Part shown: positions 13,607 through 44,345 of the stretch, piece by piece | How the letters are laid out: every line of letters starts with the position of its first letter | Position numbering within the stretch: position 1 is the first letter of the stretch | Origin: an uncultured Prolixibacteraceae bacterium | GTDB lineage: Bacteria; Bacteroidota; Bacteroidia; Bacteroidales; Prolixibacteraceae | Assembly (NCBI GenBank): GCA_963747515.1 | Contig: CAVVFN010000009.1 | Location: forward strand, 234,505 to 298,504 | Reading direction: 5' to 3' | DNA: 64,000 nucleotides | Notes under the pieces: generated by a model | The model's input: the letters and a program-made list of their open reading frames with translations, nothing else | What the model was told of the DNA's origin: nothing | Databases searched by the model: none | Position numbers and translations under genes: made by a program

Positions 13607-15019
13607 ATGAAAGATTCCGGATTATCGGAAGAACAGGTTCGGGAACCTGCGTTTGCAGGCAGCTTTTATCCATCGTCAGGGAAAAAACTTTCACAACAAT
13701 TGAAGGATTTGTTTGCTCATGCCAAAATACCTGTTGAAACTAATCAGCCACAAGCTCTCCTTGCACCGCATGCGGGATACATGTTCAGCGGTCAGATAGC
13801 TGCTTCAGCATACAACCAGTTACCGGCAAACTGCATTTATAAAAGAGTATTTATAATTGCTTCCAGTCATCATTACACCTTTGGGGGCGCTTCTGTAAAC
13901 ATTTCCGCCCGATATAAAACTCCTCTGGGTGAAATAAAAGTAGATAGAAAGTTAGCAGGCAAGCTTAATCAATCTGAAGGGCTTATCCGGTTTCTGCCTG
14001 AAGCCCACCTGGTTGAACATAGCCTGGAGGTGCAGCTTCCTTTTTTACAGCATAAACTAGGGACTGATTTCTTACTGGTTCCCATTGTTGTCGGGACGCA
14101 TGATATTTCAGAATGTGAAAAAATTGCCCTGTTGCTTGAGCCCTGGTTTACTCCTGAAAATCTTTTTATTGTCAGCACCGATTTTTCACACTATCCTTCA
14201 TACGAGGATGCGCTTGAAAACGATTTTCATACAGCGCAGGCAATCTGTAGCAATAATCCGGATGTTTTGATGCAGTTCCTTGAACAAGACAAAAACATCG
14301 AAAATCTGGCTACATCACTTTGTGGTTGGGCAGCAGTGATGACCTTATTATATATAACCAAAAATAAAATGGCAGAGTACCGCCTTATCCACTATCAGAA
14401 CTCAGGAGATATTAAATCATACGGTGACAGGAACAAAGTGGTGGGGTACTGGGCAATGGCAGTTTACCGAAGGGATAATAACCTGGTTGTTCCTCCTGAT
14501 TTTCAGGTTGAATTGCTGGAGAAGGCGCGTCATGCCATTATTCATTATTTTAAAACGGGAGAAATGGTTCAGCAGGAACCCCGAATCAATGAATTGATTC
14601 ATTCAGCAGGAATGTTTGTAAGCATTTATGTAAAGGGAGAATTGCGGGGTTGTATAGGAAACGTTACCAACAGCAGTTCCCTAAATGATGCAGTGCAGCA
14701 GCTGGCTGTTTCGGCATCATGTGATCCACGCTTTAAAAACCTTAGAAGGAACGAACTGATTTTAATGGAACTTGAAATTTCCATTCTTTCACCACTTCAA
14801 AAAATTAAGTCGATCGATGAAATTATTTTGGGAAAGCATGGTATTTATATCAAAAAAGGTGCGGACTCGGGTATCTTTCTTCCCAAAGTAGCCCAAAAAA
14901 ATGGCTGGAGCTTGAATGAGTTTTTGGGACATTGTGCTCAGGATAAAGCAGGTATTGGTTGGGAAGGTTGGGAAACTGCCGATATTTTTATATATGAAGC
15001 ATTCGTTTTTAAAGGATAA
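13607..15019 (+). CDS. AmmeMemoRadiSam system protein B (MEMO1-like) fused to protein A (AMMECR1-like)
   Basis: R.PAFAGSFYP, PHAGY.FSG, EHSLEVQLPF, STDFSHY, CG (Memo domain); G.FVSI...G.LRGCIG, DPRF, EISILSP, GKHGI, FLP.VA, KAG (AMMECR1 domain). Confidence 0.88.
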   Translation: MKDSGLSEEQVREPAFAGSFYPSSGKKLSQQLKDLFAHAKIPVETNQPQALLAPHAGYMFSGQIAASAYNQLPANCIYKRVFIIASSHHYTFGGASVNISARYKTPLGEIKVDRKLAGKLNQSEGLIRFLPEAHLVEHSLEVQLPFLQHKLGTDFLLVPIVVGTHDISECEKIALLLEPWFTPENLFIVSTDFSHYPSYEDALENDFHTAQAICSNNPDVLMQFLEQDKNIENLATSLCGWAAVMTLLYITKNKMAEYRLIHYQNSGDIKSYGDRNKVVGYWAMAVYRRDNNLVVPPDFQVELLEKARHAIIHYFKTGEMVQQEPRINELIHSAGMFVSIYVKGELRGCIGNVTNSSSLNDAVQQLAVSASCDPRFKNLRRNELILMELEISILSPLQKIKSIDEIILGKHGIYIKKGADSGIFLPKVAQKNGWSLNEFLGHCAQDKAGIGWEGWETADIFIYEAFVFKG

Positions 15020-15251
15020 CACCCAAAGTGCGAAGACTTTTTTTTGTGAATGTGCTGTTGTTTTAAGAGTTTGAATTCTCCTTGTCCCTCTTACTGTTTT
15101 TTGGGTAAATAATAAACTTTCCACAGAATAACATAAAATTTACAACCGGCCACTTCTCATTATAGGCCCAATAATCTTTATGTTTAACCCGAATGCTAAT
15201 CCGTGGCAGAAATCATGAATTTACCTCCAGTAATCCGTATTTAAAACAGAT

Positions 15252-15363
15252 TAAATTCAACCTTAATTCAGTATTAATTCAGTGTTATTTCAGTTTAAAT
15301 TCAATTATAATTGAATTTATATTGAGTTAATATTGAATTTAAATTGAATTTAAATTGAATTTA
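15252..15363. repeat. dyad-symmetric array of 11-bp repeats (5 forward + 5 inverted units), copy 1
   Basis: TCA cores with C at 15258/69/80/91/302 and TGA cores with G at 15313/24/35/46/57; perfect 24-bp palindromic centre TAAATTCAATTATAATTGAATTTA. Confidence 0.85.
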
Positions 15364-15550
15364 CACCGGACCATGTATAGAGAATTATTCCTCATTAGGT
15401 CTGATGTAATTGTTAAGAAATATTGCAGGAGGTAAATGAAAAGGATGTTAATATCCGGGCAACAAACTTTACTTTTTCTTTAATTTTTGTACTAATTATA
15501 TAAAAAATAACTATTTTCGTAAAGTTATTTAATTTTAGTAAAATCCTATA

Positions 15551-16132
15551 ATGGTAAACAAGGACAATCCAAAATACAGTGCATTGGTGAAAACAGCCCG
15601 GGAACTTTTTTGGAAGCATGGGTTTAAGCGGATTTCGGTTCAGGAAATCTGTACCACTTCGGGTGTAAGCAAGATGACGTTTTATAAGTTTTTTCCCAAC
15701 AAGATTGAACTGGCAAAACATGTTTTTACCAATGAAATAGAAAACAGCATCATCAGGTTTAACCGTTTGATAGATGAGGATATTTCCGTGCATGAAAAGA
15801 TTGAAAAGATGATTCTGTTGAAAGCTGAAGGTACGAATAACATCAGCAAGGAATTCTTACAGGATTTTTATTTGGGTTCTGAACCGGAATTAAAAAGTTT
15901 TGTAGAAGAAAAAACAAAGGAGGCCTGGGATGGATTACTTGCTACATGGAAAAAAGCACAACAGGCCGGCATATTTCGCAATGACCTGAAGCCGGAGTTC
16001 CTGGTACAGGTTTCGTTCGGTCTTGTGGAACTCATGAAAGACGAAAGGCTGACGACTCTTTATTCTTCACCTCAGGAACTTATTCTTGAACTTACCCGAT
16101 TTATTGCCTACGGAATAACGCCAGGAAGATAA
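15551..16132 (+). CDS. TetR/AcrR family transcriptional regulator
   Basis: ARELFWKHGFKRISVQEIC...GVSKMTFYKFFPNKIEL helix-turn-helix. Confidence 0.9.
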   Translation: MVNKDNPKYSALVKTARELFWKHGFKRISVQEICTTSGVSKMTFYKFFPNKIELAKHVFTNEIENSIIRFNRLIDEDISVHEKIEKMILLKAEGTNNISKEFLQDFYLGSEPELKSFVEEKTKEAWDGLLATWKKAQQAGIFRNDLKPEFLVQVSFGLVELMKDERLTTLYSSPQELILELTRFIAYGITPGR

Positions 16133-41626: not shown

Positions 41627-43009
41627 ATGGCATTAATAAAATCCATTTCAGGAATACGGGGAACAATTGGTGGAAAACCGGGTGAAGGGTTAAGCCCTCT
41701 GGACGTAGTGAAATTTACAGCAGCATATGCTGCCTGGGCAAAAGAAAATGCTGCGGGTAAAAAATTAAAGATAGTGGTAGGCCGCGATGCACGCATTTCA
41801 GGTGAAATGGTGGGCTCTCTTGTGATTGCCACTCTGGTGGGAATGGGTTGTGATGTGGTAAATATCGGACTGGCAACCACTCCAACAACCGAAATTGCCG
41901 TAACAGGCGAACAGGCCGATGGAGGGATAATCTTAACCGCAAGTCATAACCCAAAACAATGGAATGCCTTGAAACTGCTTAATTCCTCCGGAGAATTTTT
42001 AAATGCTGCTGAAGGTGAAAGAGTTCTTTTTCTGGCTGAAACAGAAGATTTTTTGTTTGCGGAAATCGATGAATTGGGGATAATAACTGAAAAAAATTAC
42101 GCTGATACTCATATTCAACAAATACTTGGACTTGATCTGGTCGATAAAAATGCTATAGAAGCTGCCGGTTTCTCTGTGGCTGTTGATGCGGTGAATTCTG
42201 TTGGAGGAATTGTAATGCCTGCTTTATTGAAAGCTTTGGGGGTGAAACATGTGATTGAAATTAATTGCGAGCCCACCGGATATTTTGCACATACACCGGA
42301 ACCCATACCGGAAAACCTGGTTGAAACTTCACAGATTGTCAGTCGCAGTAAGGTTAATTTGGGGTTTGTTGTAGATCCGGATGTTGATCGGCTGGTGGTA
42401 ATCAATGAGGATGGAAGCATGTTTAATGAAGAATATACTTTGGTGGCTGTTTCGGATTATGTTCTTAAAAACACCCCGGGAAACACTGTTTCCAATCTTT
42501 CATCCAGCCGGGCGCTGCGCGATGTTACCGAAAAGTATGGCATGAACTATTTTGCAAGTGCCGTTGGTGAAGTAAATGTGGTTGCCAAAATGAAGGAAAC
42601 CGGAGCCGTTATTGGCGGCGAGGGGAATGGCGGTGTTATTTATCCGGCAAGTCACTATGGCCGCGATGCCCTCGCAGGAGCTGCCCTGTTTCTGAGTCAC
42701 CTGGCTAAAAGTGGGTTGAAGTGTTCGGAACTCCGAAAATCTTATCCCGATTATTTCATTTCGAAAAATAAAATTGAACTCACTCCTTCAATCGATGTGG
42801 ATGCCTTACTGGAAAAGTTGAAAGAAAAATACGCAAACGAACAGATAACCGATATTGATGGCGTGAGAATCGATTTTCCGGAATCGTGGGTGCATTTGCG
42901 TAAGTCAAATACTGAACCCATTATCCGTATATATGCCGAGGCCAGGTCTGAAGCATTGGCCTTTAAACTGGCACAGCAAATTATAAGCGACATTAAAAAT
43001 CTTTATTAA
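41627..43009 (+). CDS. glmM: phosphoglucosamine mutase / phosphohexomutase
   Basis: SISGIRG, TASHNP (phospho-Ser), DPDVDR metal loop, GGEGNGG. Confidence 0.88.
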   Translation: MALIKSISGIRGTIGGKPGEGLSPLDVVKFTAAYAAWAKENAAGKKLKIVVGRDARISGEMVGSLVIATLVGMGCDVVNIGLATTPTTEIAVTGEQADGGIILTASHNPKQWNALKLLNSSGEFLNAAEGERVLFLAETEDFLFAEIDELGIITEKNYADTHIQQILGLDLVDKNAIEAAGFSVAVDAVNSVGGIVMPALLKALGVKHVIEINCEPTGYFAHTPEPIPENLVETSQIVSRSKVNLGFVVDPDVDRLVVINEDGSMFNEEYTLVAVSDYVLKNTPGNTVSNLSSSRALRDVTEKYGMNYFASAVGEVNVVAKMKETGAVIGGEGNGGVIYPASHYGRDALAGAALFLSHLAKSGLKCSELRKSYPDYFISKNKIELTPSIDVDALLEKLKEKYANEQITDIDGVRIDFPESWVHLRKSNTEPIIRIYAEARSEALAFKLAQQIISDIKNLY

Positions 43010-43130
43010 AATTCCAGTTTTAAACATTATCATCATTTTTTAAATACAATCTCCTCCTCAGAAAAAATATCACGGAAGCGGTTTACTTCGATATTTTTAT
43101 AGACGGCTTTACAATATACCAACTATAGGG

Positions 43131-43231
43131 TAAATTCATTTTAAATTCAATGTAAACTCAATGTAAATTCGCATTTAATTGAATTTACATTGAATTTATA
43201 CTGAGTTTACATTGAGTTTATATAGAATTTG
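43131..43231. repeat. dyad-symmetric array of 11-bp repeats (4 forward + 5 inverted units), copy 2
   Basis: TAAATTCATTT TAAATTCAATG TAAACTCAATG TAAATTCGCAT tt AATTGAATTTA CATTGAATTTA TACTGAGTTTA CATTGAGTTTA TATAGAATTTG. Confidence 0.85.
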
Positions 43232-43519
43232 ATCAGGAGTTGGTATCTGTTTTCTATGGTGAGAAGACTCAGAAGAGTTTAGCAGTCATGTAAGAAAGGA
43301 ATCTCAAATACCCCTGGTGGAAATGACCGATAAATCGTCTGCACCTGAAAATTTTATGGATATGCTGCCCGTTCATCAGTAGAATGATGAACTGCAGCTC
43401 ACAGGAAATAATTCTTTGGATTTTTATTATTTTCTTGTTTAGCCATAACTTTATCCTGTCTGGCAATGCAAAGTGCCGGCAATAGAATAAAGCAGATATT
43501 GAATAAAGAAATACGGAAA

Positions 43520-44345
43520 TCAGAAAGTGATGGTATTGGGATTTGGGCCAATCCGGCTGCCCTTATCGAGACGGTCAATTTTTTCCATATCTTCATTACT
43601 TAATTCAAAGTCAAAAATATCGGCATTTGATATTATCCGCTCAGTGAGTAACCGATTTAGGGATGGTTACCACTCCTTTTTGAATATCCCAGCGAAGTAC
43701 AATCTGCACGGGTGTTTTTCCATATTTTGCAGCCAGTGCCTGCAATACAGGGATATTTAATACCCGCCCCTTCATAATCGGGCTCCAGGCTTCCGGCTGG
43801 ATGTTATTACTCTGGCAAAATTCCAGTAAGTCGGGTTGTATAAGTTCCGGATGAAATTCCACCTGGTTAACTGCCGGGATTATTTTGCATTCAGGAAGAA
43901 ATTCCCGGAGGTGGTGGATAAGGAAATTACTTACACCGATGGCTCTTATTTTTTTCTTCTCATACAATTCCTCCATGGCCTTCCATGTTTCAACCGAGCG
44001 TTTTCCTTTTGGCCAGTGAATCAGGTACAGGTCGAGGTAATCGGTCTGAAGTTTATTCAAGCTTTCTTCATAAGCCTGAAAGGTTGAATTATAACCCTGA
44101 TCGCTGTTCCAGACCTTTGATGTAAGAAAAATTTCTTCGCGGGAAATGCCACTTTCGCGGATTGCCTTTCCAACACCTCTTTCATTTTGGTAGGCTGCAG
44201 CTGTATCGATGCTGTGATACCCATGCTCAAGGGCCACCTTAACCGCAGTTTCTACTTCATTGCCCTCTTCGGCACGAAAAACTCCCAATCCAAACCAGGG
44301 CATTTTTACTCCGTTATTTAATGTTGTTGTTGATGAACTGTCCAT
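43520..44345 (-). pseudogene. aldo/keto reductase with a +1 frameshift near the C-terminus (or a sequencing error)
   Basis: AKR motifs IDTA..Y, TSK, DLYLIHWP, IGVSNF, IPKS; the frame stops at 43641 but ERIISNADIFDFELSNEDMEKIDRLD...GPNP continues in the next frame to TGA 43520. Confidence 0.85.

Follow-up and report, generated by a model that had tools for sequence, protein, structure and literature searches.

A dispersed, converging 11-bp repeat family in Mariniphaga and its putative protein recognition cores

The MITEs BrickBuilt and MITEPgRS/MITE464 of Porphyromonas gingivalis contain minisatellites (Klein et al. 2015, PMC4596501). BrickBuilt is composed of 23-nt units in a single direct array, placed between a distinct leader and tail (PMC4596501), and its ends match IS5-family insertion sequences of the same genomes (PMC4596501). 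By phylum and behaviour, these minisatellite MITEs are the closest described relatives of the repeat family reported here. Arrays of a shorter unit, the heptamer GGGAATC, are known from Xanthomonas campestris and X. citri, where they often form convergent pairs (Rehm et al. 2015, PMC4692102). REP sequences are palindromes that measure 20-40 nt and bear a tag, GTAG or CGTC (PMC3733652), and REP, BIME and REPIN sit next to or around RAYT transposase genes (PMC3733652, PMC2817692).

The window analysed here is a stretch of 64,000 nt (C9:234505-298504) in a 5.47-Mb genome of the genus Mariniphaga, which is assembled in 12 contigs and has a G+C content of 39.5%. To our knowledge, very few mini-repeats have been described in environmental Bacteroidota, and most bacterial mini-repeats have no known protein partner. 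Bacterial repeats of this kind, among them REP, ERIC, Correia and other MITEs, influence transcription, the rearrangement of genomes and the quality of their assembly. In Drosophila, Foldback (FB) transposons, like their relatives Galileo and Tetris, carry long inverted arms of tandem sub-repeats; these elements are eukaryotic and kilobase-sized, with sub-repeats of 10-31 bp or longer and transposases of the P or MULE type. In plasmid R1 parC and the iteron and centromere arrays, the repeats are direct and occupy one locus or a few, adjacent to the genes that they serve, and Pho-box-type sites of the OmpR/PhoB regulators combine a 7-bp core with a 4-bp spacer.

Architecture of the element and its two copies in the window

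The earlier note on this DNA had described five forward and five inverted units around a 2-nt centre at 15252-15363, and the sequence reads exactly so. The forward 11-nt units of this copy 1 are TAAATTCAACC, TTAATTCAGTA, TTAATTCAGTG, TTATTTCAGTT and TAAATTCAATT, followed by AT and by the five inverted units. The core C recurs at 15258...15302 and the core G at 15313...15357, in 11-nt steps that include the dyad. An inverted-repeat search returns two directly abutting arms of 56 nt (0 nt apart) with 79% complementarity, and a 24-bp perfect palindrome, TAAATTCAATTA followed directly by TAATTGAATTTA (15296-15319), spans the dyad. The second copy that had been placed about 28 kb away is likewise present, at 43116-43246, and TRF assigns period 11 to both copies. 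Matches to a two-unit pattern number nine in the window and are confined to the two copies, whereas 100 shuffles predict 0.01. In single-stranded DNA folding, the copies compare with shuffles at z = -4.4 (copy 1) and z = -8.8 (copy 2); the RNA energies are -35 to -63 kcal/mol.

Conserved terminal modules carry the element beyond the span first noted, to ~15222-15380 for copy 1 and 43116-43246 for copy 2. The left end of copy 1 was compared with the terminal consensus (a)TACCTtcTCCgGAT as derived from 64 arms and from 126 arms. The features of both copies and of the genes that flank them are as follows.

13607..15019, plus strand: Memo-like and AMMECR1 fusion gene, flanking copy 1; it lies outside the element and bounds the 531-nt spacer
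15222..15251, no strand: left terminal region of copy 1, a degenerate terminal module TACCTCCAGTAATCCGTAT and then a decayed sixth unit TTAAAACAGAT
15252..15306, no strand: left arm of copy 1, five forward 11-nt units with the consensus T-W-A-A-Y-T-C-A-A-T-N
15307..15308, no strand: dyad centre AT of copy 1, as read from the sequence
15309..15363, no strand: right arm of copy 1, five inverted units
15364..15380, no strand: right terminal module of copy 1, CACCGGACCATGTATAG, for which the family consensus is ATCCGGAGAAGGTAT
15551..16132, plus strand: TetR-family regulator gene, flanking copy 1 and outside the element
41627..43009, plus strand: phosphoglucomutase/phosphomannomutase family gene, flanking copy 2
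43116..43130, no strand: left terminal module of copy 2, ATACCAACTATAGGG, which pairs with 43231-43246 in the DNA fold
43131..43230, no strand: body of copy 2, four forward units (43131-43174), the dyad at 43175/43176 and five inverted units to 43230
43231..43246, no strand: right terminal module of copy 2, GATCAGGAGTTGGTAT, from the terminal consensus and the DNA fold
43641-44345, minus strand: aldo/keto reductase gene, flanking copy 2 and convergent with the gene at 41627..43009

The copies of the family share one plan, that of an imperfect palindrome of 130-160 bp in which a terminal module (A)TACCTtcTCCgGAT is followed by 11-nt units up to a fixed dyad, beyond which the whole is repeated in mirror image. 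The terminal module (a)TACCTtcTCCgGAT stands on both arms in inverted orientation, and in the alignment of 64 arms its information content falls beyond ACC. Units are 11 nt long and ~80% A+T, and their number per arm is about 3-5 (1 to 5 at the widest). The exact 11-nt phase across the dyad, claimed in the earlier note for copy 1, extends to the family: the spacing of core C and core G holds in clusters with both arms, the innermost core C and core G being 11 nt apart, or 22 nt if the central unit is decayed. The flank consensus is AT, then ACC...GGT, then AT, with 61% agreement per flank position; a TA duplication would fit it, although such a dinucleotide is itself palindromic and the reading is ambiguous. 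Outside the element ends the DNA is unique, save for a single locus where another repeat family adjoins.

Copy number, genomic context and turnover

The whole genome holds 31 arrays with at least four motif matches, and all but two of them run forward-then-inverted in 11-nt phase. An nhmmer profile search of the whole genome returns 35 loci of the TWAAYTCAATN type with lengths of 129-161 nt, plus one fragment of 89 nt; copy 2 scores 93.3. A further subtype, AAAYTCG-N4, forms nine clusters in the genome, seven of which are new, which brings the family to ~42 loci altogether. At one locus the element is a hybrid with one arm per subtype. The CG subtype contains TACGAA, but a sequence look-up gave no link to foldbacks with TACGAA units in other phyla. 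The dispersed element family that had been suggested from two copies is thus real (35 + ~7 loci).

All 35 loci of the TWAAYTCAATN type are intergenic and non-coding. The orientation of their neighbouring genes is ++ at 13, +- at 9, -+ at 7 and -- at 6, which corresponds to 19 co-directional, 9 convergent and 7 divergent (20%) contexts. The scan for phased arrays that the earlier note had proposed for this and related genomes recovers a family, with no gene-orientation bias. Copies lie mid-spacer, typically 100-300 nt from either gene; 28 of the 35 are downstream of at least one gene, and in co-directional spacers the element lies a median of ~170 nt past the upstream stop codon. The distribution over contigs is mildly uneven (chi-square p = 0.04). 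Neither a promoter-like excess nor terminator-like sites were found in the region, and a T-tract terminator signature is absent at the copies.

Neighbouring genes provide no candidate partner. Among the neighbours in this genome and at 87 related loci, no partner-like gene recurs, the largest cluster being one of ABC-transporter paralogues, and no cluster is transposase-like. A par or rep gene was not found beside the copies either; together with the lack of a recurrent neighbour, this deprives the centromere or iteron analogy, drawn earlier from the phased units, of its expected context. The TetR regulator, which had been considered as a partner of copy 1, adjoins one of ~42 copies. A conserved promoter/operator region of the TetR gene lies ~100 nt downstream of copy 1. 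The sole public contig returned for the identical TetR protein is the same as the window and ends at the copy 1 dyad; on the practical side, palindromes break short-read assemblies.

The taxonomic range is narrow. A three-unit pattern occurs in six of 21 Mariniphaga genomes, with 3 to 165 matches each, and is found in no genome of 20 other genera; when reversed as a control, the pattern has no match anywhere. In a seventh genome, G006, the CG subtype prevails (164 matches, ~80 loci); in five of the other carriers it is a minority, and 14 congeners among the 21 Mariniphaga genomes are without any such array. A convergent-array pattern has no match in 400 other Bacteroidota genomes drawn across the phylum. 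A four-unit core pattern matches 3 of 300 other genomes of the order (G099, G053 and G270); at the loci fetched from these three no foldback was found, and G099 and G270 carry direct arrays. The non-Mariniphaga matches of a species-wide scan and those on viral contigs are also direct tandem arrays, with a similar core. The family is confined to seven closely related Mariniphaga genomes and is absent from ~700 other Bacteroidota sampled.

Comparison of spacers between species offers a view of the history of individual copies. At 13 of the 36 loci of relatives that could be placed by synteny, an element occupies the same spacer in the present genome; at the other 23 there is none here. Independent insertion would yield far fewer than thirteen shared spacers among several thousand, which places the origin of many copies before the species diverged. 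At five of five further spacers that are occupied here (G000), G006 has no element, and its ~80 CG-type copies are therefore located elsewhere. Concerted change at orthologous G006 sites was considered as well and is rejected by the same five empty spacers. Four species have the element in the spacer upstream of the TetR gene. The G006 spacer contains a palindrome of the CG type that is one unit long and has the same kind of ends, and in two outgroup species the spacer measures 90 nt and holds no element.

The identity between copies differs from genome to genome, with a mean of 0.78 and a maximum of 0.92 in G011 and a mean of 0.71 and a maximum of 0.82 in the present genome (G000), within which no near-identical copies were found. 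Taken together, the comparisons indicate that the subtypes were amplified lineage by lineage and at differing sites, as would be expected of a mobile family. Given the absence of near-identical copies here, mobility is read from the differences between species only, and within this genome the family looks old and quiescent. A clean empty site could not be aligned, the spacers of other species being too diverged.

Constraint on the units and the search for a mover or binder

Column frequencies were taken by distance from the dyad alone, with no motif filter. Counted in 150 arms of five species, unit positions 3, 4, 6, 7, 8 and 10 reach frequencies of at least 0.9 in the four inner units, and positions 2, 5, 9 and 11 stay at 0.5-0.7. 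The profile of the unit is alike in the five species. In the CG subtype a core of seven bases does not vary, whereas the spacer of four bases varies freely and differs even when units that face each other on opposite arms are compared.

The core withstands time to a striking extent. In copies at shared sites, 456 of 480 core positions (95%) are intact, which equals the value for other copies. Under neutral decay, retention would be expected at ~78% or less, by a crude yardstick taken from third codon positions of flanking genes (50-65% identity between species); the value for random arms of the same composition is 50%. The family model also gives shared-site copies scores as good as those of the rest. 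With the exception of the nearest relative, a copy resembles its orthologues no more than its paralogues, which points at a consensus that persists, rather than at shared history. Read most simply, this conservation suggests that a sequence-specific factor recognises the cores; homogenisation among copies might produce it as well.

Pairing between the arms behaves differently. For class 0 geometry, complementarity is 0.767 within an element versus 0.753 +/- 0.005 for swapped arms, and for class 1 geometry it is 0.723 versus 0.723. The excess within elements is restricted to the inner unit pair, and the inner columns co-vary slightly. An initial sign of arm covariation, 74% versus 60%, proved to be an artefact of mixed dyad geometries and is nearly gone when arms of the same geometry are swapped. 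Mismatches between the arms comprise 305 G-T and 331 A-C pairs, with no strand asymmetry per element (overdispersion p = 0.13). No pairing constraint of either the RNA or the DNA-hairpin type is visible. The potential to fold back follows from consensus units in converging orientation, and the hairpin looks like a by-product.

These results divide the earlier proposal of a protein that reads the units and polymerises from a central site. The part that concerns the units themselves has indirect support from cores that are 95% intact in shared copies while pairing is not kept beyond what the consensus gives; a par or rep gene, as expected beside a partition-type array, was not found next to the copies.

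A gene that could move the element was sought in several ways. The TA-like flanks had raised an IS630/Tc1 origin, which is rejected since no IS630-type DDE_3 gene was found in six element-bearing genomes (G000, G002, G003, G008, G010 and G011). No longer element with matching termini was found, and no arms separated by cargo were detected in the whole genome, at 104 genome loci or at 120 metagenome loci. The genome has seven Y1_Tnp genes, all at least 13 kb from any copy; the four whose flanks were read are bordered by other, GC-rich hairpins, and RAYT-like Y1 genes are common in the order. A RAYT/REP link was dropped accordingly, as the Y1 genes carry unrelated repeats. Seven genes of PF05635 (23S-rRNA-IVS, four-helix-bundle) are present in the genome, none of which is bracketed by the 11-bp-unit family.

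Catalogued families offer no match, in keeping with the suspicion in the earlier note that the repeat is undescribed. Rfam gives no match at the gathering threshold, and an E-value scan yields no hit at E < 0.2, with scores at chance level; plasmid and phage records hold no match to the unit family, and no description of an 11-bp-unit foldback family was found in the literature searched. Curvature from phased A-tracts was also considered. A wedge model puts the ratio of end-to-end to contour length at 0.96 in the elements, close to the 0.95 of windows across the genome and far from the 0.38 of a control with A-tracts; it predicts no unusual bend, a result to be taken as a lead.

Readings of the family and its place among known repeats

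We consider it probable that the family is a non-coding foldback repeat of the MITE/REP class, with phased cores that are putative recognition sites of a DNA-binding protein. Among the hallmarks of MITEs, a length below ~300 bp, multiple dispersed copies, terminal inverted repeats and presence or absence between related genomes are all seen; an autonomous insertion sequence with matching ends was not found among the DDE_3 genes, termini, cargo and neighbouring ORFs examined. The element would act as double-stranded DNA, and the cores, which recur at every helical turn and point towards the dyad, would be putative sites for a sequence-specific DNA-binding protein. They might belong to a foldback-type transposon that has multi-site ends and an elusive or lost enzyme, or be sites that are now used by a host protein.

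Three other explanations compete for the same observations. The arrays might be architectural or regulatory sites of the host and no mobile element, along which a nucleoid-associated or partition-like protein polymerises over both arms from the dyad, and which persist for their use to the host; this is in essence how the earlier note read them. In its favour are cores that survive between species (95% intact), an exact 11-bp phase continuous over the dyad, one unit profile across five species, old copies that match the family model as well as others do, and the mildly uneven distribution over contigs (p = 0.04). However, the sites vary by lineage: close species differ from 3 to 165 pattern matches, 23 of 36 syntenic sites of relatives are empty in the present genome, G006 has ~80 loci of the other subtype and none at five spacers occupied here, and 14 congeners manage without arrays. 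Neither a bias toward promoters or gene ends nor a constant neighbour is observed, and a conserved terminal module would be needless in a pure binding array. We regard this explanation as unlikely. A neutral origin, in which replication slippage and template switching enlarged a short palindrome of the ancestor into microsatellite-like converging arrays that nothing recognises, would account for unit numbers from 1 to 5 per arm, for the one-unit palindrome with similar ends at the TetR site of G006 and for the slight co-variation of the inner columns, as quasi-palindrome correction would give. Dispersed and positionally conserved converging heptamer arrays are moreover documented in Xanthomonas (PMC4692102). 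Slippage, however, produces identical neighbours, whereas neighbouring units here share the core and differ in the spacer; core retention in old copies exceeds the neutral expectation, the terminal module and dyad geometry are conserved, and slippage alone leaves the same composite at ~40 unrelated sites unexplained. This makes a purely neutral origin very unlikely.

A function at the RNA level, with the element transcribed as an AU-rich hairpin that serves as terminator, 3' stabiliser or RNase III target, appears most improbable. Terminator, stabiliser and RNase III roles have been proposed for REP, ERIC and Correia elements, and the A-form helix repeats every eleven base pairs, to which the 11-bp unit is equal. 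That both window copies fold far better than shuffles, and that 28 of 35 copies are downstream of a gene, speaks in the same direction. Against this stand the lack of an Rfam match and of a T-tract terminator signature, G-T and A-C mismatches that are equally frequent and free of strand bias, and arms that match their own partner no better than the arms of other elements. Seven of the 35 copies lie between divergent genes, and the median distance of ~170 nt from the upstream stop is unfavourable as well. The RNA hairpin that the earlier note had offered as an alternative thus fails on several counts: neither G-U asymmetry nor covariation is seen, a terminator tail is lacking, and divergent genes flank 20% of the copies.

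Returning to the reading of a MITE/REP-class repeat with recognised cores, we can extend it in a more speculative direction. A dedicated protein might bind the 7-bp cores and coat the element outward from the dyad, being either a new bacterial transposase or recombinase with multi-site ends of the foldback type or a lineage-specific chromosome organiser; we hold this to be rather doubtful, albeit conceivable. If the protein were a transposase or recombinase, the family would represent a prokaryotic counterpart of the eukaryotic Foldback elements; if it were an organiser, ~40 landing pads would have been seeded by a mobile element. In either case, the AAAYTCA and AAAYTCG subtypes would mark a shift of protein specificity between sister species. 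The family provides a clean handle on such a partner, with a 7-bp core at every turn, natural A/G variants and element-free congeners as controls.

Compared with the systems described above, the family resembles parC and Pho-box sites in its 11-bp periodicity, conserved core and free spacer, which suit head-to-tail binding at each helical turn; it differs from them in that ~40 converging arrays are dispersed over the genome without an associated gene. Like REP sequences, it consists of dispersed extragenic palindromes; REPs can be bound by host proteins, and RAYT-like Y1 genes occur in this genome. The earlier note had recognised no REP element here, and the family indeed differs from REPs: the element is 129-161 nt long, its terminal consensus has no GTAG or CGTC tag and the RAYT genes are flanked by unrelated hairpins. 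With FB elements it shares sub-repeat arms, many non-coding copies and the ability to fold back, a likeness of architecture only, with no link in sequence or enzyme.

The Xanthomonas arrays are alike in their short tandem units, dispersed intergenic location, convergent layout and positions that are largely kept between sister species. Their units are 7 nt long, rich in G and able to form quadruplexes, and the arrays lack both a terminal module and a fixed dyad, whereas the present unit is an AT-rich 11-mer (7-nt core and 4-nt spacer) between conserved ends. BrickBuilt differs from the present family in unit length (11 nt here), in having one array where two converge here within an element that is palindromic as a whole, and in its end-matching insertion sequences, for which no equivalent was found. 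The two nevertheless have much in common: both belong to Bacteroidota, are non-coding and strictly intergenic, reach ~20-40 copies per genome in a narrow range of hosts, place short terminal inverted ends around tandem units and have some sites conserved between sister species. What is distinctive of the Mariniphaga family is the combination of arms made wholly of 11-bp units, an invariant 7-bp core (AAAYTC-A/G), a fixed dyad and conserved ends.

Copy 1 and the region upstream of the TetR gene

The Logan contig L155 (run ERR11718636) is identical to the window, with which it was compared at 15296-15550, and this public short-read contig ends just within the left-arm unit nearest the dyad in copy 1 of the foldback element. 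The palindrome of copy 1 evidently breaks short-read assembly.

In the ~70 nt 5' of the TetR gene (window 15470-15550), TTCGTA/TACGAA motifs are kept in all Mariniphaga relatives, the element-free genomes G005 and G012 among them. This stretch probably serves as the operator for TetR. The motif is similar to the core of the CG-type foldback unit (AAATTCGTA).

Hybrid copy and other repeats in the window's own genome

A hybrid foldback element is located outside the window, on contig C3 of the same genome (G000 C3:224145-224273), with TWAAYTCAATN units in its left arm and TACGAGTTTAA (CG-type) units in its right arm. Its predicted fold reaches -27 kcal/mol, and the arms, being of mixed subtype, hardly pair.

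The genome further harbors the following genes and repeats:

C4:14792-16392, C1:6245-6589, C5:2121-2465, C11:37699-38040: Y1_Tnp (RAYT-like) genes, seven in total
C1:154915-155766, plus four further loci: non-coding repeat of ~850 bp with inverted repeats TAATTAGGGCCTGCTGAGAAA at its termini
C11:50750-51010, C2:449600-452170 and numerous further sites: abundant purine-rich repeat family
C2:631784-644353, at the contig end: 12.5-kb tandem array, period ~207 bp

Three of the seven Y1_Tnp genes belong to a 628-bp tandem array. Flanks were read for four of the genes, and all four are flanked by GC-rich hairpins, CAGGCTGAAAGCCTG being one example. A series of ~50-nt repeats follows downstream of the gene on C11. 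The five copies of the ~850-bp repeat share 93-97% identity, with one of them occupying a spacer whose counterpart in the relative G011 holds a foldback element. Purine-rich repeats flank one foldback copy and, on C2, are also present around two genes of PF05635 (23S rRNA IVS-type four-helix-bundle).

Similar units outside Mariniphaga

On an archaeal contig from a Methanosarcina MAG (L040:4604-4709), AAATTCA and TGAATTT arrays converge on a 30-nt spacer. They are without the terminal module of the Mariniphaga elements, and possibly represent chance or an analogous structure. Loci of G099 (L180 among them), from another family of the order to which Mariniphaga belongs, carry GAAATTCAGTT, GAAATTCGGTT and similar 11-nt units, at least ten of them at one locus. 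Unlike the Mariniphaga elements, these arrays are direct and not foldbacks; a congener has none.

On each of three IMG/VR contigs, three to four AAATTCAGTGT units form a direct array:

L169:8108-8163
L168:2529-2566
L175:3116-3158

GGCCAAAA...TTTTGG brackets the arrays in L169 and L175, and a helicase-like gene lies immediately downstream of the array in L169. These arrays look like phage iterons that share core and period with the Mariniphaga unit.
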